Origin: Minisyncoccota bacterium
GTDB lineage: Bacteria > Patescibacteriota > Minisyncoccia > Phycocordibacterales > Phycocordibacteraceae
NCBI GenBank assembly: GCA_035531495.1
Contig: DATKSU010000005.1
Location: 41,984-105,983 of the forward strand
Direction of reading: 5' to 3'
DNA: 64,000 nt
How positions within the stretch are numbered: position 1 is the first letter of the stretch; each line of letters opens with the position of its first letter. The notes under the pieces are model-generated. The model saw only the letters and a program-made list of their open reading frames with translations, had not been told where the DNA came from and searched no databases. This document shows, in pieces, positions 6,943 to 32,308 of the stretch. Position numbers and translations under genes: made by a program.

Positions 6943-8007
6943 TCAGACGATTGACACTGCTTCTTCGAGCGGGAAGCGTAGCGCGTGTGCAGTAGGAGGA
7001 TCAGCGCGGCCGATGCGGAACATGAAAGCGATGTGCTTCCCGTCCGCGTTGAAAATCTGTGACGCTTTCCCGTATGCAGTCATGACGAGCCGCTGCTCCG
7101 CTGTCGTGAACATATCGCTCTCTCCTGCCGCTATCTTAAGCTTGAAGAACAAGACGCCGGTGAGCGGCTGAAAGCTGAGGCCGAGCGACGTCGCGGCGAG
7201 CCAGGTCCGCTCTACTGCGCGTCCGACTTTCACGAAGTCGATTGGTTCCGTGCCATCGATGATGAACGCCCCCATGGCGGCAGCGGAAGCATTCGTAGCC
7301 CCGTTCTGCTTCGCTACGATGCGATTGAAGCCGAGCTTGGCAAGGATGCGCATGACGGACCAGTTATTGAACATCTTGAACATCTTTTCCGCCGGCGGAG
7401 GCAGTTCGAGCGTCTTGATGTAAAAGCCTATCTTCTTCGCATCGTCTTCCTCCTTGGTCCAGGTCACGTGACTGAAAAAGAAATCATGAAGAGCGCGATT
7501 CGCGAGCATCACTTCCTCATTCGTCGAGCCGACGCGCCCGAGGACCGCGATGGCTTCCTTATCCTTTACGAGCTTGAGTGATCCTGGACGGCTTCCCACG
7601 GCGGCACTATGGAGCGTGTCCTCTTCGGCCTGCGTCAACGGCTCGGTGGCGTAGGGCTTGCGGTTCGAGATGCGTTCATAAATGAAATCCGCGAGCACGT
7701 CTCTCGGCGCGGAAGCGTCTTTGCGCAACGTGACCGTCGCGACATGCCACGCGTCGCCTTTGTCCGGAAAATACGAGACATTGGCCGCATATCCCTCTTT
7801 CGAAGAGGCAATAACGAGGTTCTCGAGCGCCGCGCCGCAGGCGAGATACGACGCGCGCTGGCCCCAGCCGTAGTAGGACTGATCGCGCTCCGGGCGTACG
7901 TGAATCTCGACCGTCAGACCGGAGACGACGAAGCGCCACGGCTGGCAATTCTCTCCGGAAGGCGCTTGGTTCGCTGCAGCAAGGATACGTTCCAGCGCGG
8001 TATCCAT
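6943..8007 (-). CDS. tandem-domain nitroreductase-family protein (Acg-like / SagB-type dehydrogenase-like)
   Basis: SGENCQPWRF nitroreductase signature near the N-terminus. The second half of the 354-aa protein is also nitroreductase-like. Confidence 0.7.
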   Translation of the reverse strand: MDTALERILAAANQAPSGENCQPWRFVVSGLTVEIHVRPERDQSYYGWGQRASYLACGAALENLVIASSKEGYAANVSYFPDKGDAWHVATVTLRKDASAPRDVLADFIYERISNRKPYATEPLTQAEEDTLHSAAVGSRPGSLKLVKDKEAIAVLGRVGSTNEEVMLANRALHDFFFSHVTWTKEEDDAKKIGFYIKTLELPPPAEKMFKMFNNWSVMRILAKLGFNRIVAKQNGATNASAAAMGAFIIDGTEPIDFVKVGRAVERTWLAATSLGLSFQPLTGVLFFKLKIAAGESDMFTTAEQRLVMTAYGKASQIFNADGKHIAFMFRIGRADPPTAHALRFPLEEAVSIV

Positions 8008-8012
8008 AGATC

Positions 8013-9200
8013 TTACAATCCGAAGGATCGCGCGAACGCTTCGGCGGCGGCGCGGCGGCGTGATTGTGATTCTTTTGAGTCGTAGCTGGACTCGAGCTTT
8101 TCGTCGAGAGAAATCAGTGCCCGATCATTGATGAGCGGCTGGCCGGCGAGTATCTTGCGGACGCAGTATGCGACCGCCGCGCCGTTCACCATAGCCGCGA
8201 TGCCGAGTTGCGGCCATGAGACGAGGGTCTTGCCCATCTCTTTTAGGGATTCCTGCATACGGATGGTGACGGTATCGGCGCCCACCCACTTCGTAATCAT
8301 CTTCCCGATGCCGAACTTGTCGAGCCCTTTGAGCGTCTCGTAGGAGACGTCACCCATGCGCCCGTGGAAGAATTCAGGGTGCGGCTTCATGTCATGGCGT
8401 TCGATCTCAATCAGAGCGTTATCGCCGTTATCGGCACCCATGACGATGGGGATGCGTCTCTTCCGCGCCTGTTCGCGGATGAGATACTTGAGCGCGAGAT
8501 TATCGATTTCGTCTACCACTATGTCGAGACCGTCGAAGAATTTCTCGATGTTCCCTTCCGTCAGTCCGTCAGGGAAGAGCTCGAGTTCGGTATAGGGATT
8601 TATCTCGTAGATGGTTCTCGCCGCCATCTCGACCTTCAGCATCCCGAGCCGGTCAGCACCGGCAAGGATGCGGTTCGTATTCGAAAGCGCGAGCCGATCC
8701 ATGTCGGCCAGCTTCATCTTCTTCCCTCCGCCGGACAATGCGATTGCAAACGCGACCGATGAGCCGACAGACAAGCCCGCGATGCCGATGGCGGCGTTAT
8801 AGAACTTCTCCTGCTCCTCTTCCGTGACGAGGTTCCGGTTGCGCGCCGTGCGCACGATGCGGTACTCGTCTTCCGGAAGGATGTGCGCGGCCAGATAGCG
8901 CCAGGGGAGGTATGCCCACCTGCCGTGCTCATGGAGCGGCTTCTCGTCTTGGAGCGATTTATAGTACGCCTGGAACTCTTTCTCAAAATCGGGCGTGTAG
9001 ACCTTCGAGGGATTCTTTATGCCGAAAAGCTCGCGCTGCTCTTCTTCGTAGTCGTCCGATATCTGCTTGATAGCGCCTTCTTTCACGAGCGACTCAAGGC
9101 GGGTGGTATCCTTCTCGCGTGAGAGGTCGAGAATAGTGGGCTTGGATTCGACGGGTTCGCTCGCGAGCTTGTCCAGAACGTTTCCAAGATTTTTCGACAT
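8013..9200 (-). CDS. ThiF/MoeB/E1-like adenylyltransferase-family protein with ~130-aa N-terminal extension
   Basis: Rossmann nucleotide-binding loop IGIAGLSVGSSVAFAIALSGGG, then E1-like core (RIPIVMGADNGDNALIE). 395 aa. Confidence 0.7.
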   Translation of the reverse strand: MSKNLGNVLDKLASEPVESKPTILDLSREKDTTRLESLVKEGAIKQISDDYEEEQRELFGIKNPSKVYTPDFEKEFQAYYKSLQDEKPLHEHGRWAYLPWRYLAAHILPEDEYRIVRTARNRNLVTEEEQEKFYNAAIGIAGLSVGSSVAFAIALSGGGKKMKLADMDRLALSNTNRILAGADRLGMLKVEMAARTIYEINPYTELELFPDGLTEGNIEKFFDGLDIVVDEIDNLALKYLIREQARKRRIPIVMGADNGDNALIEIERHDMKPHPEFFHGRMGDVSYETLKGLDKFGIGKMITKWVGADTVTIRMQESLKEMGKTLVSWPQLGIAAMVNGAAVAYCVRKILAGQPLINDRALISLDEKLESSYDSKESQSRRRAAAEAFARSFGL

Positions 9201-9220
9201 ATGAGATGGTTAAAGGCGTA

Positions 9221-10783
9221 TCAATGGCCGTTTATGACCCACTTCTGCTTGATGCCCGGCGGAAAGTATTTCGGATGCTCGTGCGGCCAAAAGACGAGGC
9301 GAGGGATGACCTTCTGGCGTATCGAACCATAGAGATAACGATACTCGTCACTCGAACTTGAAAGGCTTTTTATGATGCTTTCCGTCAGCGCATCTTTGAT
9401 GGATTCGCTATCCTTTACGCCCGCGGCGAGCTCGACGTTGATTTCGAGGTATTCGTTATGCTTCGCGTCGTGCTCAGTCGTCATCGTGAAGCGTCCGGTG
9501 ATGGATTTCTCGATCGCGGGATTCTGCAAGCCGATCTTCACGTGCTCCGGGAAGATGATGGCGCCGTAGAGCTTCGTCGAGAGGTCGGAGCGTTCGTAGA
9601 GATAGACGAACGGCAGCTGTGTGACGGTATCATCGATTCCGGCACGCTTCGCCTCCGCGGCGAGATTGATGCCGACGTCTGTGCACATCTTCACGACGTC
9701 ATCATACGTGAGCACGCCGCCCTGATCGCCGATGTCGTACCGGATGAACGGGAGCGGCGTACCGCCGGTCGCATGAATCTGGCCCTCCTTCCCCGCGTCG
9801 AAGGCGACGAAGTCCGGAATGAACTGCGCCAGGGTCGGCAAGCGGCGCGCCTCGCTGAAAAGCTTCCGGTAGAGCGCGTCATGCCTCAGGGCGAGCCGGC
9901 GCAAGAGTATCGAGAGCGGCGTCTCGGTGGCCATCGAGCCGAGCTCGGCGCTGCCGTAGATGTTCATGATGCTGCGGTAGGGATCCTTCATCCCGGTCTT
10001 CTTCATGAGGTACTCGCGGAAATGCTCGGAGAACGCCTCCGCGGCGCAGACGATGCGCATGTCCCACTGCGCCCATTCGATGCCGTGCTCGGGACCTTCG
10101 TCGATGAGATCCTTCATGAACGGCGGGTAGCCGCAGAGAATGAGTTGTTCGTACGACGGCGCCACGCGCGTGAGCGCCTCGAATATCTCTTTCTTGTTCA
10201 CGCCGGGCGTGATGATGGTGAGCGGCCAGCCGTTCTCCGAGATGCGGCGGAACGCTTCATATGTCAGTGTGCCCCCGATCCACACGCCCATGCCGAAGCC
10301 GATGACGACGAGCGTCGATTTCTTCGGGTCGAGGCCGCTGCGCTCGACGAACAGCCGGTGGTACACCATCGACGCTTCATGCGTATCATCCATGCGCGGG
10401 ATGTAGAACGGCTGTCCGGTCGAGCCGGACGTCGCGGTGAGGACGAGCGGCTTCTCGGCGAGCGCGTGCGCGACGCAGAGCGTATCCCACGGGTGCACGC
10501 GCAGGTAATTCGCCTTCGTTATGGGCGGGATGCGCTCTACGTCCTTGCTGCCGCGGATGGAGCCGGCATCGAAACCGAGCCGTTCGAGGAAGCTGCGGTA
10601 TGCCGGGACGTTCTTAAGCGCATACTTGAAACGGTTCAGGATGGCCGCGCTCGTCGCGCGCGACCAGTCCGCGCTTTCGTTCGTGCGAAGCTTCGTGATG
10701 AAGGCCGGGGAAACCGAAAAAATACGAGGCCGTGCTGGGGTCTTTTTGGTACGCACATAAGCCGATTGCCGGCTCTGTCGCAT
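9221..10783 (-). CDS. PaaK-like (phenylacetate-CoA ligase / F390-synthetase family) adenylate-forming enzyme
   Basis: P-loop-like TSGSTGQPFYIP, IGFGMGVW, YGSAELG. Start moved to ATG 10783-10781 (MRQSRQSAYV...). The 222 Arg-rich residues upstream in the track ORF look like wrong-frame extension. Confidence 0.75.
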   Translation of the reverse strand: MRQSRQSAYVRTKKTPARPRIFSVSPAFITKLRTNESADWSRATSAAILNRFKYALKNVPAYRSFLERLGFDAGSIRGSKDVERIPPITKANYLRVHPWDTLCVAHALAEKPLVLTATSGSTGQPFYIPRMDDTHEASMVYHRLFVERSGLDPKKSTLVVIGFGMGVWIGGTLTYEAFRRISENGWPLTIITPGVNKKEIFEALTRVAPSYEQLILCGYPPFMKDLIDEGPEHGIEWAQWDMRIVCAAEAFSEHFREYLMKKTGMKDPYRSIMNIYGSAELGSMATETPLSILLRRLALRHDALYRKLFSEARRLPTLAQFIPDFVAFDAGKEGQIHATGGTPLPFIRYDIGDQGGVLTYDDVVKMCTDVGINLAAEAKRAGIDDTVTQLPFVYLYERSDLSTKLYGAIIFPEHVKIGLQNPAIEKSITGRFTMTTEHDAKHNEYLEINVELAAGVKDSESIKDALTESIIKSLSSSSDEYRYLYGSIRQKVIPRLVFWPHEHPKYFPPGIKQKWVINGH

Positions 10784-10845
10784 GGATGCGCGCACGTTAC
10801 CACATAAATTGGCGTGTGTAAACGCCTGTGGGGATAGCGCTCTGA

Positions 10846-12354
10846 CTACGCCAGTCCCGGGAAGTAGTCGGTCTTGATGGAAAGGCGCGGGACGCCGAGC
10901 GTGTGGAGCGCGCGTTTCATGGCGTCCACCATGCCCGGCGGGCCGGAGAGGTAGAAGAGGCGGTTGCGATAATCGGGAATCTCGCGCTTGATGAACGCCG
11001 CGTCGATTGCGCCTGCGTGCGCGCCCGGCATGAGGGTCGTGCTGTCTGTTATGGCGTAGACGGTCCGCAAGCCGCGGGTCGCCGCGCTCGCGAAGACGTC
11101 CTGGTAGGCGACCTCTTCGGCCGTGCGGCTCGAGTAGAGGAGGACGGCATCGCGCGACTCCCCCGCCGCGACCAGGTGCCGCGCCATACTCGCGAAGGGC
11201 GTGACGCCCACCCCGCCCGCGATAAAGGCGAGCTTGTGATTCTTGTCGACCGGCATGGTGAAATCGCCCGAGAGCGATGCGGCCGTGACGACGCCGTCTT
11301 GCGGGATGGCCGCAAGCGCGCGCTTGAAGGCGCTCGGTTTCTCGTAGAAGCGGACGCCGAGCCGGATCTGGCCGTCCTCCGGCGCCGAGGCGATAGTGAA
11401 GTAGCGGCGGTTGCCGCGGCTGTCGAACGGCACATCGCGCAGCGTCCACTCGAGGTATTGCCCCGGACGGAAGGTGAACGGGCGATCGGGCCGGAAGACG
11501 AACTCGTAGATGCCGCGCGCGAGCTTATGGCGCTCCGTGAGCGTGAGCATGTAGCGGCCTTTCGGGCTCACGACGTACGAGAAGAGATTCCCGGCAAGGA
11601 GTGCCGTCTCCGGCGTGAAGTAGAAGGAGCCGACGTGCGCGGCCGGCACGAAGAGCACGCCGACGAGCGCGCCATAGATGATGCGCAGCGTGCGCGACGG
11701 CGGCATCGTGAGGGGTTCGGTGAGCATGACAAAGCCGAGGAAGAAGAACGCCGAGTGGAGGATGGTCTCGTTCAGGCCGGTCACGGGGCTGAGCGACGTG
11801 AACGCGGTGGCGAGGAGCGCGGCGACGCCGAACGCGATGACGAGGTCGTAGCGCCGGAGCTTGTGGACGATGGCGAGCCCGCCGATGACGACGAACGGCA
11901 GCAAAGGCAGGTTCCCCGACACCCACCACGTCGCGTTCACCGCGAAGACGAAGGCCGAGAACGCGACCGCGAACGCCGCCGGGTTGAAGACGTGCTTGTT
12001 CCCGAGCGAGAAGATGTACTTCGACGCGGTGCCGGCGGCGGCGATGAGCGCGTAGAGGATGGTTGCGCCGATGCTGCCGGCCGAGATGGGCGGCAGGATG
12101 AGGACGAGGATGAGCCCCGTGATGAGCGAGGATTCCGCGTTCGTCACCGCGTCGAAGATGTTCGCGAAAATGAGGTTCGTCGCCCACGAGCCCGCGACGA
12201 GCACGATGAGCGTATAGAGGAGCGGGACGGGCGCGTACGGCAGGATGCCGAATACGCCGAAGGCGAGCGCGACGACATAGAGAACGACGAGGTAGTAGAG
12301 CACGAGCCGATACATCGTCGTGCGGTCGATGAGGCGCTTCAGAGCGGTGATCAT
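10846..12354 (-). CDS. membrane-anchored FAD/NAD(P)-binding oxidoreductase (FNR-like C-terminal module on a ~250-aa polytopic N-terminal domain)
   Basis: C-terminal RYFTIASAP (RxYS FAD motif) and GGVGVTPF (NAD(P) motif). N-terminal half has 6-8 hydrophobic helices. Confidence 0.7.
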   Translation of the reverse strand: MITALKRLIDRTTMYRLVLYYLVVLYVVALAFGVFGILPYAPVPLLYTLIVLVAGSWATNLIFANIFDAVTNAESSLITGLILVLILPPISAGSIGATILYALIAAAGTASKYIFSLGNKHVFNPAAFAVAFSAFVFAVNATWWVSGNLPLLPFVVIGGLAIVHKLRRYDLVIAFGVAALLATAFTSLSPVTGLNETILHSAFFFLGFVMLTEPLTMPPSRTLRIIYGALVGVLFVPAAHVGSFYFTPETALLAGNLFSYVVSPKGRYMLTLTERHKLARGIYEFVFRPDRPFTFRPGQYLEWTLRDVPFDSRGNRRYFTIASAPEDGQIRLGVRFYEKPSAFKRALAAIPQDGVVTAASLSGDFTMPVDKNHKLAFIAGGVGVTPFASMARHLVAAGESRDAVLLYSSRTAEEVAYQDVFASAATRGLRTVYAITDSTTLMPGAHAGAIDAAFIKREIPDYRNRLFYLSGPPGMVDAMKRALHTLGVPRLSIKTDYFPGLA

Positions 12355-13094
12355 GGCGTGGTGTAGGTTACGAAACCGCTCGTGAATATCGCCGTACCGG
12401 TATCCGTGATGGCGTACCCCTCGAGCCCCGGCGTGCGCTCGATGAAAGCGATGCCGTCCTTCCCCATCGCGAATGCCGCGGTGGCGTAACGGTCGGCTTC
12501 GAGCACGTCGGGGCCGATGACGGTCAGGCTCACGATATCACGCAGCTCGCGCGACGGATCGTGCGGGTCGTAGATATGCGCTCCGCGCAGATAGGAGCCG
12601 GAGGTCGCAATGCCGGCGCCCTTCGGATAGACGACCTTCACGATCTCGTCAGTCGCGAACGGATTGCGGATGCCGACCTTCCAGGGCTCGCCGTTCGCAT
12701 TCTGTCCGCTCATGGCGATGTCACCGCCGGCGTTCACAAAGAAATGCTGTTGGCCGTTCTCCCGGATGCGCGCGGCCGCGTTCTTGACCGCCCAGCCCTT
12801 CACGATGCCGGACGGGTCGAGTGACCCGTCCGGCCGGCGGATGTCGAAGTAGCCGCCCGTCTCCGCCTTCGTCCGCTCGGCGATGGCGAAGACCTCGCGC
12901 ATCTCGCGGCTCGCGGTCTCGGGCGCGAACTCGCCGCGATTGATGCGTGATATCTCGCTCGTGTCCTTGTACGTACTGAAACGCTCGTCCACCGCTTGGA
13001 GGTACGCGAAGGCGTCCTCAACGGCCGGCTTCGTCCCCTCGCCCACGATCTCAATCTCGACGGGCATGCCCATCACGGGGCGAATCTCGCGCAT
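12351..13094 (-). CDS. apbE: FAD:protein FMN transferase (ApbE family)
   Basis: ApbE-like motifs (TSEISRINR; SGIVKGWAV; GGDIAMSG; IATSGSY). 4-nt overlap with the upstream gene. Confidence 0.85.
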   Translation of the reverse strand: MREIRPVMGMPVEIEIVGEGTKPAVEDAFAYLQAVDERFSTYKDTSEISRINRGEFAPETASREMREVFAIAERTKAETGGYFDIRRPDGSLDPSGIVKGWAVKNAAARIRENGQQHFFVNAGGDIAMSGQNANGEPWKVGIRNPFATDEIVKVVYPKGAGIATSGSYLRGAHIYDPHDPSRELRDIVSLTVIGPDVLEADRYATAAFAMGKDGIAFIERTPGLEGYAITDTGTAIFTSGFVTYTTP

Positions 13095-13097
13095 GGA

Positions 13098-13628
13098 CTA
13101 GCTCTGCGCTTGCTGCAGCGCGGCGGCGAGCGACTGTCGGAACGCGATGCTCGTGTCGGTCGCGCCGGAGATGAGGTCGACGTTCGCGCTCTGCACGGAG
13201 AGCGCCTCCTGCGAGAGCATCGGCATCGCCTGCTGGTTGATATAGACGGAGGTCGAGTGGGTGTTCGGGTACTGGAGGAAGGAGACGTTCGCGAGGGCGC
13301 CGTTCTTGATGGTCGCCTGCACCTCGACCGGGCCGTAGTAGGCGTCCGCGACGGCGCCGGTGTAGGTGCCGTCCTTGTAGCCGCTCTTCGCCGGCGGCGG
13401 CGTCGCAGGCGTAGCGGCCGGATTTGCGGCCGGCGGCGGGTTGCCGGAGTTCGCCGACGACGGCTGCACGGGTGCCGGTGGCGTCGCAGCAGGCGCACCG
13501 CCCCCGGCTGGCGCCGTCACGTTATTTGAAATCTGGATGCCGGACGGCGCCGATGCCCCCGCCGAGCGGGAAAAAACATACAGGGCCGAAGCCCCGACAA
13601 GTACGAGCGCTAGCAACGTCTTTTTCAT
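13098..13628 (-). CDS. secreted FMN-binding domain protein (NqrC/RnfG-like flavinylation target)
   Basis: Signal/anchor MKKTLLALVLVGASALYVF, Pro/Ala-rich linker, and the canonical flavinylation motif ISGATDTS near the C-terminus. Confidence 0.8.
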   Translation of the reverse strand: MKKTLLALVLVGASALYVFSRSAGASAPSGIQISNNVTAPAGGGAPAATPPAPVQPSSANSGNPPPAANPAATPATPPPAKSGYKDGTYTGAVADAYYGPVEVQATIKNGALANVSFLQYPNTHSTSVYINQQAMPMLSQEALSVQSANVDLISGATDTSIAFRQSLAAALQQAQS

Positions 13629-13718
13629 ATACCCATATTACTCTTCATCCGGCCGTTTCGTTTCATCCGATGCCCTACAATAGACGGAGGTACTTCTTAC
13701 CCGCTTACCGAACCCGCA

Positions 13719-14273
13719 ATGGCCTACTACGTCGTCGAAGAATCCCCGTTCTCGCATTTCTTCGTTGCCAGCACGAAAAGCGCCCCGTTCTGGTTCCTCG
13801 TGCGCCTCTACGTCGGCTGGGAGTGGCTCTCTGCCGGCTGGGAGAAGTTCCAGAATCCGGCGTGGTTCGGCTCAAGCGCCGGCGCGGCATTGAACGGCTT
13901 CGTCCAAGGCGCGCTCGGCAAGACGGGCGGCGCGCACCCGGACGTGCAGAGCTGGTACGCGGCCTTCCTCCAGAGCACAGTCCTCCCCCACCTCGTCGTC
14001 TGGTCGAACGCAGTCGCCATCGGCGAGTTCCTCGTCGGCCTTGGGCTCATTTTCGGTGTCTTGACCGGCATCGCCGCGTTCTTCGGCCTTTTCATGAACT
14101 TGAATTATCTCCTCGCCGGAACCGTGAGTCTGAACCCTATCCTCTTCACGCTCTCGGTCGGCCTCGTCCTCGCGTGGCGCGTCGCGGGCTACTATGGCGG
14201 CGACCGCTACGTGCTGCCGCTCCTGCATCGCTCGCTCCGCCCGCGCGGCTTGCCGCGGCTGAAAAAGCTCTAG
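13719..14273 (+). CDS. DoxX family membrane protein
   Basis: 184-aa polytopic protein with a DoxX-like helix pattern (FWFLVRLYVGWEWLSAGWEKF...). Confidence 0.65.
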   Translation: MAYYVVEESPFSHFFVASTKSAPFWFLVRLYVGWEWLSAGWEKFQNPAWFGSSAGAALNGFVQGALGKTGGAHPDVQSWYAAFLQSTVLPHLVVWSNAVAIGEFLVGLGLIFGVLTGIAAFFGLFMNLNYLLAGTVSLNPILFTLSVGLVLAWRVAGYYGGDRYVLPLLHRSLRPRGLPRLKKL

Positions 14274-14318
14274 CCGCGCCCCGGGCGCGGCTAGGCCGGC
14301 TCGCATGCTTGAAGCGCG

Positions 14319-14579
14319 CTAGCCGAGGTCTTTCTTCTTCTCTTCGAACTCCGCTTTGCCAATCTCGCCCTTCGCGTAGCGCTCCTTTAGGATGTCGAGC
14401 GCCGCCTCGCCGTGCCCGTGCCGGCAGCGCCACATGGACTTCCCGCGCGCGAAGCGCACGAGCGCCACGATGGCGGCGATGAAGACGATGACCCAGAAGA
14501 TGGAGAACAGGATGCCCATGATGCCGAATCCTTCGTATCCGCCCATCATCGGATGCCCGTAATAGCCGTATCCCCACAT
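14319..14579 (-). CDS. SHOCT domain membrane protein
   Basis: N-terminal TM helix plus C-terminal ALDILKERYAKGEIGKAEFEEKKKDL, a typical SHOCT motif. Confidence 0.8.
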   Translation of the reverse strand: MWGYGYYGHPMMGGYEGFGIMGILFSIFWVIVFIAAIVALVRFARGKSMWRCRHGHGEAALDILKERYAKGEIGKAEFEEKKKDLG

Positions 14580-14634
14580 AGTCGTGATTCGTTAGGCTGA
14601 TAACCGTACCTGATACTACTACTCCCGAACACCC

Positions 14635-15078
14635 ATGGGAAATGCGCTCGGGATTGGCGCGCACGGCCGCGCCGCGTATGATAGCCGCATGCAATCGTCC
14701 CTCGGCATCACGAAGAAGGTCCCCTACCCGTTCGCGGAAGCGATAGAGAAGGCGAAAACCGCGCTCGCAGAGGAAGGGTTCGGCGTCCTTACGGAAATCG
14801 ACGTCGCGGCGACGCTTAAGTCGAAGCTCGGCGTCGCGCGCGAGCCGTATGTCATCCTCGGTGCCTGCAACCCCGCGCTCGCGAACGAGGCCCTCCAGGC
14901 GGAAAATGAGGTCGGTCTCCTTCTCCCATGCAACGTCGTCGTGTACGAGAACGGCGGGGTCGTGTATGTCTCGGCCGTGAAGCCGAGCGCAATGCTCGGC
15001 GTCATCGAGAACGCGGCGCTCGCCTCGGTCGCACGCCGCGCCGAAGAGAAGCTCGCGTGCGCCGTCGAGAAGCTCTGA
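14635..15078 (+). CDS. DUF302 domain protein
   Basis: GFGVLTEIDVAATLKSKLGVAREPYVILGACNP matches the DUF302 core. True start may be the internal ATG at 14689 (MQSSLGI...). Confidence 0.8.
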   Translation: MGNALGIGAHGRAAYDSRMQSSLGITKKVPYPFAEAIEKAKTALAEEGFGVLTEIDVAATLKSKLGVAREPYVILGACNPALANEALQAENEVGLLLPCNVVVYENGGVVYVSAVKPSAMLGVIENAALASVARRAEEKLACAVEKL

Positions 15079-15084
15079 GCGGCG

Positions 15085-15714
15085 CTAGTCCGGCGTGACC
15101 GGCTCGAGACCTTCCTCTTCGAGCGCCTTCTTCACGCCAGCGCGCGCCTCCATCCGCTTCATAAGGGCGGCGATGTTCGGATAGTCTGCGAGCGCGATGC
15201 CGGCGCGCGGCGACCAGCGCATGATGGTATAGCAGTACGCGTCCGCGATGCTGAAGTCGCGGCCGAGAAGGTAGTCCTTCCCCGCGAGCGACGCGTCCAC
15301 GTACGCGTAGCGCTTCTTCAGCCGGTCGATCGCGGCCGTCTTCTGGCCTTCCAGCAGATTCGGATTGAAGAGCGGTCCGAACCCCTTGTGCAGTTCCGTG
15401 CTGACGAACGTGATCCAGGAGAGCATCTCGTAATACGCTTTTGCGCCGCGCTCGGGCATGAGCTTCTTCCCGGGAGCCTGGTCCGCGAGGTATTGGATAA
15501 TCGCCGGACCCTCGATGAGCACGTCGCCGTCGTCGAGCCGGCAGGCGGGCACATAGCCGCCGCGCGGGTTCACCTCATAAAAATCCTCACCGTCCTCGGT
15601 CGTCCGGCCCTCGGCCGAGAAAGTGACTTTCGATAATTCGACGGGGAGTCCGCCTTCGCAGGCGACGATGTGCGGCGAGAGCGAGCACGCGCCAGGAGAG
15701 TAATAAAGTTTCAT
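15085..15714 (-). CDS. glutathione S-transferase
   Basis: MKLYYSPGACSLSPHIV N-terminal thioredoxin-like GST fold and an alpha-helical C-terminal domain. 209 aa. Confidence 0.85.
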   Translation of the reverse strand: MKLYYSPGACSLSPHIVACEGGLPVELSKVTFSAEGRTTEDGEDFYEVNPRGGYVPACRLDDGDVLIEGPAIIQYLADQAPGKKLMPERGAKAYYEMLSWITFVSTELHKGFGPLFNPNLLEGQKTAAIDRLKKRYAYVDASLAGKDYLLGRDFSIADAYCYTIMRWSPRAGIALADYPNIAALMKRMEARAGVKKALEEEGLEPVTPD

Positions 15715-24562: not shown

Positions 24563-25428
24563 ATGTGATGATCAAGGATGCGGGAAAAATACCAGCGCTT
24601 CGCCCGCTGGAAGAGGTGGCCGTTGTGCCGTTCGGTACGGCGCAGCTTCTGCACGTATGGGTCGAATTGCCGGCACACGGGAGCGCGCTCGTACGGAAGC
24701 CCGGTGAGTATCTTGTACACCTCCGTCGCGACGAGATTCGCGCACGCGAGCGTCGCGACTACGGATGACGGCGCTGTTTCCTTTTCGAAATCAATCGCGT
24801 CCGACTTGTAGTACGAGCGGTGAACGAGCGAGGGGGAGATGCCGATGGCGAAGCGCAGCAGCTGTTCGCGCCGCGTCAGGGAGTCATCGAGCGCGAAGTA
24901 GGAGTCGAAACTCATGCTGTTCGGAGCGAACGTGAGGAGAGAGGCGCCGAAACCGATGGGGGCGCAGGTCAGCACCGGGATGCCGCGTTCGCGCGCGGCA
25001 CGGAAGAGCAGTCGCCGCACCTCGATATTGAAGAAATCGATGCCGTCGAGCGCCACGTCCGCGCCTTCGAGGAAAGCGGCGACGGTCTCGCTCGAGATGG
25101 CAGGAAACACGCGAATCCGGACGTGCGGGTTGATATCGCGCACCATACGTTCGATGGTGCGCGATTTCTCTTCTCCGAGCGTCGCCATCGAGGCGCCGGC
25201 CTGGCGATTGAAATTCGCCATCTCGAACGCATCGGAATCGGCGATTGTGAAGGCGCCGACACCGAGTCGCGCGAGAGTCGTCGCATAAATGCCGCCTACC
25301 CCGCCGAGCCCGGCGATGGCGACGTGCGTCGTGCGCAAGACGTCCTGATGCGCGTCGGGAATGAGCCCCCGGTTACGCGCAAAAGCGTCGCGGTAAGAGA
25401 AATTCAGAGCGTCAGTCGCTTTCTCCAT
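24559..25428 (-). CDS. ThiF/MoeB/TcdA-family E1-like enzyme
   Basis: VAIAGLGGVGG dinucleotide loop, ...NFNRQ. 289 aa. Confidence 0.8.
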   Translation of the reverse strand: MEKATDALNFSYRDAFARNRGLIPDAHQDVLRTTHVAIAGLGGVGGIYATTLARLGVGAFTIADSDAFEMANFNRQAGASMATLGEEKSRTIERMVRDINPHVRIRVFPAISSETVAAFLEGADVALDGIDFFNIEVRRLLFRAARERGIPVLTCAPIGFGASLLTFAPNSMSFDSYFALDDSLTRREQLLRFAIGISPSLVHRSYYKSDAIDFEKETAPSSVVATLACANLVATEVYKILTGLPYERAPVCRQFDPYVQKLRRTERHNGHLFQRAKRWYFSRILDHHI

Positions 25429-25595
25429 GCGATAGCATAAGTATACCGTACGGCCACTCCGGGGCGGTCAAACGCTTGAGAGATCCTTGACGACGCCTGT
25501 CAATAGCGGTGATATACTTCCCCCATCATGCGGCTCGCCGATGTGCGGAATGTGCAGGACTTCATGCGGATGGCCGACGACTGCTACGTGCCTGA

Positions 25596-31341: not shown

Positions 31342-31632
31342 ACCGCGTCAGGGTTAGGGGTAAATCCTGATGGGCGGGTAGCACAAAACCCGCTACCAGG
31401 AAGGCCTTGCGGCCTCTATAGGAGTTTCCCCCTATAACGTAAGCCACGCCCTGATAACGGGTTTTCTGTGGCTTACGATTGTCGACCATGCCCGGGGACG
31501 AATCCCGCAGGTTTAGGCCATTTCTATTCGTGTGTCGAACTTGTACATAATAGCTCGTTTTCAGCTATCCTTGTAGACCCTAGCTTAGATCTAAGGTTTT
31601 GCGAAATAGGTTACCAACAGCAAGACTTTGCC

Positions 31633-32183: not shown

Positions 32184-32237
32184 GAATTTCGGCATTTTTG
32201 ATGCCGGGCGGTCTGATTAACAGGCCGCACTACCGTG

Positions 32238-32308
32238 TTGCGGGGGCGGGAATCGAACCCGCGTCTGGAGGTTATGAGCCTCCCGAGGTACCTCTCCTCT
32301 ACCCCGCT
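32238..32308 (-). tRNA. tRNA-Met (CAT), initiator-like
   Basis: Reverse complement AGCGGGGTAGAGGAGAGGTACCTCGGGAGGCTCATAACCTCCAGACGCGGGTTCGATTCCCGCCCCCGCAA. Anticodon loop is CTCATAA. It has a 1:72 mismatch (A.A) and an A11:U24 pair, which point to an initiator, but the G29 of the initiator GGG triplet is an A here. 4-nt variable loop. Confidence 0.75.

Follow-up and report, generated by a model that had tools for sequence, protein, structure and literature searches.

A three-gene NQR/RNF-like flavinylation module in a Minisyncoccota bacterium, with a leaderless ApbE beside a predicted outward-facing flavoprotein

The closest described relatives of the system considered here form the NQR/RNF-like class, which Meheust et al., 2021 define by a fusion of PF03116 to PF00175 within a flavinylation gene cluster, and which was first reported in 127 genomes of two groups that include the candidate phyla radiation (PMC8238504). 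Subsequently, Huang et al., 2024 presented an AlphaFold-multimer model of the Ktedonobacter complex; this complex has two subunits only and has not kept the RnfD/NqrB flavinylation site, its FMN_bind subunit is docked on the extracytosolic side, and it is suggested that the covalent flavin mononucleotide (FMN) of this partner reaches a non-covalent flavin site of the RnfD-like subunit (PMC10979944). Here we describe three genes at positions 10846 to 13628 of a 64-kb stretch of contig DATKSU010000005.1 from a Minisyncoccota bacterium, the whole of which is referred to below as the window. The three genes encode an FMN_bind protein, an ApbE and a fusion protein, they open a run of seven minus-strand genes, and they are a member of the NQR/RNF-like class, so that their architecture is not new. 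We consider it about 70% probable that they specify a two-subunit Nqr/Rnf-like transmembrane electron-transfer complex, together with a dedicated flavin transferase, that passes electrons from NAD(P)H to an outward covalent flavin. The features of the locus are as follows.

13098-13628, minus strand: FMN_bind gene, 176 amino acids (aa)
12351-13094, minus strand: ApbE gene, 247 aa
10846-12354, minus strand: RnfD/NqrB-FNR fusion gene, 502 aa
11560-12354, minus strand: RnfD/NqrB-like membrane domain, residues 1-265 of the 502-aa protein
10846-11559, minus strand: FNR-type FAD/NAD(P)H-binding module, residues 266-502 of the 502-aa protein
13629-13718, 90 nucleotides (nt): divergent intergenic region between the FMN_bind gene and a DoxX gene, presumed promoter region of the run

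The class-defining features are all present. PF03116 and PF00175 occur in one protein, the FMN_bind and ApbE genes lie directly upstream of its gene on the same strand, and the flavinylation threonine of RnfD/NqrB has been lost from the fusion, its loop having no counterpart in the alignments and its motif being absent across 74 homologues. As in the published class, there are two subunits and the host belongs to the candidate phyla radiation, and we see no essential difference from it; two features not discussed in the accessible text of the two papers are a truncated, leaderless ApbE of ~247 aa throughout the family and the deletion of the whole RnfD loop. We do not present a new kind of system, the class having been defined in 2021 and modelled in 2024, but a clean and complete three-gene instance of it that sharpens two points. 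One is that a separate FMN_bind subunit would functionally replace the flavin loop of RnfD. The other is that the dedicated ApbE is leaderless although its substrate is predicted to be exported, and it is this conserved mini-ApbE that deserves follow-up.

The three-gene layout of the original prediction was confirmed at the level of open reading frames (ORFs), as were its motifs in the translated ORFs (ISGATDTS, RYFTIASAP and GGVGVTPF) and its account of a tight run, for which we obtained gaps of -4 to 62 nt where -4 to 63 nt had been claimed. Along the run the gaps are 3, -4, 62, 20, 5 and 12 nt, the stop codon of the ApbE gene overlapping the start of the fusion gene (ATGA), and in public annotations of identical contigs the gene products are the same as here, of 176, 247, 502, 520, 395, 354 and 532 aa. 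An NCBI 'hypothetical protein' of a Candidatus Paceibacterota metagenome-assembled genome (MAG) matches the 502-aa protein at 100% identity. With NCBIfam, none of the three proteins could be assigned to a specific family, all matches being generic and below cutoff, and neither paralogues of the three nor a second ApbE were found within the window.

A scan of GTDB species genomes for relatives of the fusion returned at least 579 loci, of which the best 80 were examined for synteny; the fusion family is thus found in at least 579 GTDB species, where the first report counted 127 genomes. When the membrane domain was searched exhaustively, 264 clusters (50% identity) were obtained at E<=1e-30, most full-length members having 480-515 aa. 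The best 80 loci are mostly from Paceibacterota, Kaiserbacteria, Adlerbacteria or Parcubacteria, and also include Mesorhizobium, Hyphomicrobiales, Acidobacteriaceae and Thermoleophilia at 47-50% identity. Of the 80, 69 have the FMN_bind gene directly upstream of the fusion gene, with ApbE in between in 46 of those, where all three genes are contiguous; in the other 23 the FMN_bind and fusion genes are adjacent and ApbE lies elsewhere in the locus or not within it. A further three loci hold ApbE next to the fusion gene, FMN_bind being undetected by tblastn. This arrangement is conserved far beyond chance.

Complete FMN_bind-ApbE-fusion modules, 47-50% identical and again with a leaderless ApbE, were seen in the five loci L061, L073, L078, L074 and L075, which sit in Mesorhizobium, a Hyphomicrobiales MAG, Acidobacteriaceae and Thermoleophilia; the Mesorhizobium module has a convergent histidine kinase just downstream. 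Complete modules in these organisms point to horizontal transfer outside the candidate phyla radiation and Actinobacteria.

The original prediction had set the electron-input protein apart from the Nqr and Rnf types. In this it was mistaken, as Pfam, profile, Foldseek and hhalign comparisons all identify the membrane domain as an RnfD/NqrB homologue, and the FNR half is NqrF-like. The Pfam match to PF03116 (NQR2_RnfD_RnfE) scored 29.2 bits against a cutoff of 27.7. The AlphaFold2 model of the 502-aa protein (pLDDT 85, pTM 0.76) has ten membrane helices between residues 14 and 262 and an FNR two-domain module at residues 268-502, which bears out the proposed union of a ~250-aa polytopic domain with an FNR-like module. 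Since Foldseek with the full-length model gave FNR-domain matches only, the membrane domain was modelled separately (pLDDT 87). Its top 15 matches in the Protein Data Bank, including 8ahx_D, 7xk3_B, 9eri_D and 7zc6_D, were all RnfD or NqrB chains (TMq 0.57-0.73, probability 1.0). Urea transporters, which share their fold with RnfD/NqrB, ranked next. A profile of 16 homologues matched Azotobacter vinelandii RnfD (8ahx_D) at E=0.0015, leaving RnfD residues 141-220 unmatched, and hhalign of the membrane domain against E. coli RsxD gave E=3e-6.

The unmatched region is where the fusion departs from RnfD. The alignments span RnfD residues 75-140 and 221-330, and the loop of ~80 residues between them is reduced here to only 11 residues (138-148). 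The corresponding loop of E. coli RsxD carries DGISQAT187PLD, of which T187 is reported to be the RnfD flavinylation site (Backiel et al., 2008). A [ST]G[AS][ST] motif is likewise absent from the membrane domain in all 74 homologous fusion proteins. Judged from these alignments, the whole ~80-residue outward loop between transmembrane (TM) helices TM5 and TM6, with the FMN-bearing threonine of RnfD, is deleted in the fusion. The loops between the model helices hold 11 lysine and arginine residues on the predicted inside and none outside; this positive-inside distribution places both termini of the 10-TM domain inside and hence predicts that the FNR module is cytoplasmic, and the deleted flavin loop would have faced outward.

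Pfam matches above cutoff were obtained, as expected, for FMN_bind, ApbE and NAD_binding_1; FAD_binding_6 fell short, and in its place the FNR fold was confirmed structurally. Within the fusion, NAD_binding_1 (PF00175) scored 45.8 bits against a cutoff of 22 and FAD_binding_6 scored 17.4 bits, under its cutoff of 21.1. The motif RYFTIASAP, for flavin adenine dinucleotide (FAD), stands at residues 316-324 and GGVGVTPF, for NAD(P), at residues 380-387. By Foldseek, the module resembles the reductase domain of flavohaemoglobin (TM-score normalised by the length of the target, TMt, 0.82-0.83), the FAD domain of NqrF (TMt 0.67-0.69), GcoB and Fre, all at E<=1e-13, and the full-length model also retrieves NOX dehydrogenase domains through its FNR half. 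Sequence searches match this half to NqrF, flavohaemoglobin and other reductase families.

The FMN_bind protein, identified as such by Pfam (PF04205, 29.5 bits against a cutoff of 22), begins with MKK, followed by a hydrophobic anchor helix of 16-17 residues, a Pro/Ala-rich linker at about residues 30-85 and a compact FMN-binding domain of ~88 residues (88-174). The anticipated SGATxT site is there: the flavinylation motif VDLISGATDTS, which contains Thr157, occupies residues 151-161 (ISGATDTS 153-160), ~20 residues before the C-terminus. The anchor, the low-complexity linker and an invariant [VI]SGA[TS]xTS are kept in ~65 homologues, which have 3-5 positive charges before the helix and a net charge of roughly zero after it. 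On this charge pattern the protein is predicted to be anchored N-in/C-out, as in NqrC/RnfG. The nearest solved structure to its FMN-binding domain is 8p2a, SaFMN3-D2 of Streptomyces azureus (E=2.8e-12), to which the domain is 40-odd % alignable. SaFMN3 is flavinylated by ApbE in E. coli, has a midpoint potential of -184 mV and is reoxidised by O2 when reduced (PMC10339131). Given that the loop with the flavinylated threonine of RnfD is missing from the fusion, the FMN_bind protein is, as far as motifs can tell, the only recognisable flavinylation substrate in the seven-gene run. A second flavinylation site was sought in the fusion and in the four downstream proteins of the run and none was found, the sole other match to the motif expression being TSGSTG, the adenylation motif of a PaaK-like ligase.

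The second gene does encode an ApbE FMN transferase, as claimed (PF02424, 154.4 bits against a cutoff of 25.6), and alignment to the S. enterica and E. coli ApbE structures shows that the active-site motifs TSG, HxxDP and EAD..AT (ADxxAT) are kept. The protein is, however, short in comparison with the Salmonella enzyme. Only 7 residues precede the first core strand (MREIRPVMGMPVEIEI), and its residues 8-86 and 87-235 align with residues 22-104 and 156-313 of S. enterica ApbE, so that it is without ~50 internal residues equivalent to Salmonella ApbE 105-155. An in-frame stop 2 codons upstream of the start means that the ORF cannot be extended; in all loci examined the start is kept as M[KR][EQ]TR[IL][IL]MGMP and an upstream stop is present. 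The 120 best ApbE homologues have 237-272 aa, the longer ones examined having hydrophilic N-terminal extensions, and no signal peptide, lipobox or TM segment was found in the ApbE of any locus examined. We conclude from these observations that the ApbE of this family is a truncated enzyme without a leader.

Two other explanations were set aside. A mis-called start concealing a signal peptide was ruled out by the upstream stops, the conserved start and the hydrophilic extensions. The stop codon of the FMN_bind gene (TAG) and the start codon of ApbE (ATG) lie in one frame with TCC between them (13092-13100, minus strand), which resembles a split fusion; a fusion of FMN_bind and ApbE made by stop-codon read-through was also ruled out, since the same frame occurs in 13 of 46 adjacent pairs, as by chance, and related loci contain no fused ORF.

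Domain identities, fold, topology prediction, conserved synteny and loss of the RnfD flavinylation loop are shown here, and the module can be set beside better-known complexes. With Rnf (8ahx, 7zc6, 9eri) it shares the RnfD fold (TMq <=0.73), the motifs FNPA and T(D/E)PxT in the membrane domain, an FMN_bind subunit with an RnfG-type anchor and an SGAT site, and a cytoplasmic NAD(H) module on the inner face. In contrast to Rnf, it has no RnfA, RnfE or RnfB subunit in the window and no iron-sulphur (Fe-S) clusters, a fused FNR module takes the place of RnfC, the RnfD FMN loop is deleted, and one-way electron flow is predicted, with no evidence for ion pumping. No Rnf or Nqr family was found among the genes within +/-10 kb, and tblastn with E. 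coli RsxA, RsxB, RsxC, RsxE and RsxG over the 64-kb window gave no match better than E=0.099. None of the findings named as refuting the original prediction was made: the Pfam matches stand above threshold, the FMN_bind protein is predicted N-in/C-out, and no other Rnf or Nqr subunit was found in the window. Na+-NQR (7xk3, 8a1t) resembles the module in its NqrB fold (TMq ~0.6), in the likeness of the FNR half to the FAD/NADH domain of NqrF, and in NqrC, to which the FMN_bind partner is analogous. The module differs from it in lacking NqrA, NqrD, NqrE, the 2Fe-2S domain of NqrF and the T236 FMN site of NqrB; its membrane domain is ~150 residues shorter than NqrB, and a quinone site is not evident. 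Finally, proteins of the NOX/FRE type (SpNOX 8qt6, DUOX) also carry a cytoplasmic FNR module C-terminal to an outward-carrying membrane domain, and the FNR halves superpose, but in NOX the membrane part consists of a 6-TM di-haem ferric-reductase domain, whereas here a haem-free 10-TM RnfD fold would rely on flavins.

Based on these comparisons, we propose a model for electron transfer by the module. The cytoplasmic FNR module of the 502-aa protein would oxidise NAD(P)H on its FAD, and the electrons would then traverse the membrane via the RnfD/NqrB-like 10-helix domain, probably through a non-covalent flavin, to reach an FMN that ApbE links by a phosphoester bond to Thr157 of the anchored FMN_bind subunit. 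This subunit would lie on the outer side of the membrane, the side on which RnfD normally bears a flavinylated loop itself. The outward flavin would in turn reduce an extracellular acceptor, for which O2, Fe(III), quinones and host-surface compounds are candidates. In a fermentative Paceibacterota cell without a respiratory chain, the complex could serve as an outlet for reducing equivalents. Bacteria of the candidate phyla radiation are without respiratory chains, and little is understood of how they rid themselves of reducing equivalents; a wire from NAD(P)H to the outside that consists of two proteins, uses flavins throughout and is widespread in Paceibacterota could plausibly account for it, and its small size would permit reconstitution. 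Flavin-based transmembrane or extracellular electron transfer, as originally put forward, is in our view the best reading of the locus, its FMN_bind substrate, its ApbE and its membrane-fused FNR module for NAD(P)H all being supported. Which way the electrons flow, their intermediate cofactor and acceptor, and the place and time of ApbE action are drawn from homology and from published models, the same electron-transfer model having been put forward for the NQR/RNF-like class in both earlier papers (PMC8238504; PMC10979944).

A number of points weigh against this model. The bridging cofactor in the membrane domain is hypothetical, and as the membrane-domain alignments hold no invariant cysteine and H121 as the sole invariant histidine, an Fe-S or haem relay there is unlikely. 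A preference for NADH or NADPH is not readable from the FNR sequence, among the 80 loci no terminal reductase or acceptor-related gene turned up as a conserved neighbour of the module, and a literature search found no experimental characterisation of the class, which is known from sequence and models. To these is added a topological conflict, in that an ApbE without a signal peptide, lipobox or TM segment is paired with a substrate predicted to be exported. The characterised ApbEs that serve exported substrates are, to our knowledge, lipoproteins. For Klebsiella pneumoniae, localisation is reported to set the specificity of the cytoplasmic and the periplasmic ApbE (Bertsova 2014, as cited in PMC12052999). 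The cytoplasmic ApbE2 of that organism is, like the present enzyme, without a signal peptide, but it serves a soluble cytoplasmic fumarate reductase, whereas here the sole motif-bearing partner is predicted to be exported (PMC12052999). We found no discussion of a leaderless ApbE facing an exported substrate in the searchable text of PMC8238504 and PMC10979944, nor any literature on ApbE in Patescibacteria beyond these papers of the Light laboratory (Meheust et al., 2021; Huang et al., 2024).

The description of the locus as an extracytosolic flavinylation module is therefore only partly sustained: the substrate is predicted to face outward, but its flavinylation there is not straightforward with an ApbE that is leaderless in every locus examined. 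It is possible, though we hold it with some doubt, that the outward flavoprotein is flavinylated inside the cell by the truncated cytoplasmic ApbE and then inserted or exported with its FMN, or else that the leaderless ApbE reaches the outer face. A motif of seven residues at the end of a protein can be enough for ApbE to act on (PMC12052999), so that the C-terminal region of the FMN_bind protein might conceivably be flavinylated before membrane insertion or in the course of it. Were either route correct, genome-reduced bacteria of the candidate phyla radiation would build an extracellular flavin wire without exporting FAD, contrary to the rule for ApbE localisation derived from Klebsiella and Salmonella. 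The conflict would vanish if the FMN_bind domain were itself cytoplasmic or on the inner face and flavinylated there by the cytoplasmic ApbE, the complex then being a membrane-bound NAD(P)H:flavin or quinone oxidoreductase and not an exporter of electrons. The absence of a leader from ApbE in every locus examined and the translational coupling of ApbE to the fusion gene would fit this arrangement, and cytoplasmic ApbEs for cytoplasmic FMN_bind domains are known, for example for the Klebsiella fumarate reductase (PMC12052999). However, given that ~65 homologues place 3-5 positive charges before the helix and a net charge near zero after it, that after the helix comes a linker rich in Pro, Ala, Thr and Ser, as is typical of tethers outside the cell, that the position of the RnfD FMN loop is predicted to face outward, and that the published multimer model docks the subunit extracytosolically (PMC10979944), we believe an inner-face location to be unlikely.

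Two further explanations would assign the module another purpose. We rate as slightly less likely again that the complex is an assimilatory ferric or flavin reductase supplying Fe(II) for uptake, and not a general redox outlet. Such a role would be suited by the ability of flavins facing outward, with a potential of about -184 mV (PMC10339131), to reduce chelated Fe(III), and by the VIT1 ferrous-iron transporter that Meheust et al. found in 6 of 127 such clusters (PMC8238504). Against it, no iron transporter is among the 30 commonest neighbour families in the 80 loci, and none was found within +/-10 kb in the window. The other explanation takes the seven genes as one pathway, in which the flavinylation module serves the enzymes encoded downstream, ApbE for instance flavinylating a cytoplasmic enzyme. 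These downstream genes encode a PaaK-like ligase, a ThiF, an Acg/Rv1355c-type nitroreductase and a 7TM histidine kinase. The tight gaps in the window (-4 to 62 nt) would speak for a single pathway, as would three relatives, L003, L009 and L010, in which the PaaK-like block directly follows ApbE. Set against this are the finding of clear block homologues in only 3 of the 80 loci, the absence of a DxxSGAT-type motif from the PaaK-like protein, ThiF, nitroreductase and kinase (the TSGSTG of the ligase being an adenylation P-loop), and, at most tentatively, a weak hairpin in the 62-nt gap at 10811-10826. We consider a single pathway very improbable.

The claim of a seven-gene operon as a unit did not survive the comparison of loci. 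The PaaK-like/ThiF/nitroreductase block occupies 6943-10783 on the minus strand; its PaaK-like adenylate-forming ligase is without a Pfam match, while its ThiF corresponds to the N-terminal half of the 'Rv1355c family' model (326 bits) and its nitroreductase to the C-terminal half (196 bits), on which basis we take the pair to be a split version of an Rv1355c-type fusion. Clear homologues of these genes (37-76% identity) occur in L003 (1-2079), L009 (3-1484) and L010 (1350-5038) only, all Kaiserbacteria-like, where the block directly follows the leaderless ApbE and not the fusion gene. As the block is found in just these 3 of 80 loci and is absent from the closest relatives of the fusion, L001 and L005 (70% identity), the seven-gene run is a lineage-specific juxtaposition and not a conserved operon. 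The seven genes may still be co-transcribed in this organism. A promoter scan found no sigma-70-like consensus in 13629-13718 upstream of the run, a scan that does not extend to the promoter types of these bacteria.

Around the module, several neighbours recur among the 80 loci: ECF sigma factors (18 loci), MacB-type ABC ATPases (18), D-2-hydroxyacid dehydrogenase (15) and DoxX (8), as well as DUF5666 proteins, enolase and histidine kinases. The NAD-dependent D-2-hydroxyacid dehydrogenase gene is on the same strand in its 15 loci, which include L028 (6469-7476), mostly within ~2 kb upstream of the fusion gene and in several loci directly upstream of the FMN_bind gene; its presence hints at a link to NAD+ regeneration and fermentation. 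In the window, a DoxX/DoxD-family membrane protein is encoded divergently from the FMN_bind gene (13719-14273, plus strand), and DoxX homologues (59-73% identity) adjoin the ApbE or fusion gene in 8 of the 80 loci.

Elsewhere in the window, genes for a small SHOCT-domain membrane protein (86 aa, minus strand) and a DUF302 protein (147 aa, plus strand) lie in 14319-15078, between the DoxX gene and a GST-like gene (15085-15714), and a strong bidirectional hairpin was noted at 14270-14294. A second ThiF-like region (24943-25455, minus strand) has 33% identity to the ThiF of the run over 175 residues. Lastly, a LOOT RNA (Rfam RF03000) at 31401-31519 on the minus strand matches the full-length model with 77.5 bits, the gathering score being 46.4; the stretch around it is low in GC and close to a tRNA-Met (32237-32308).

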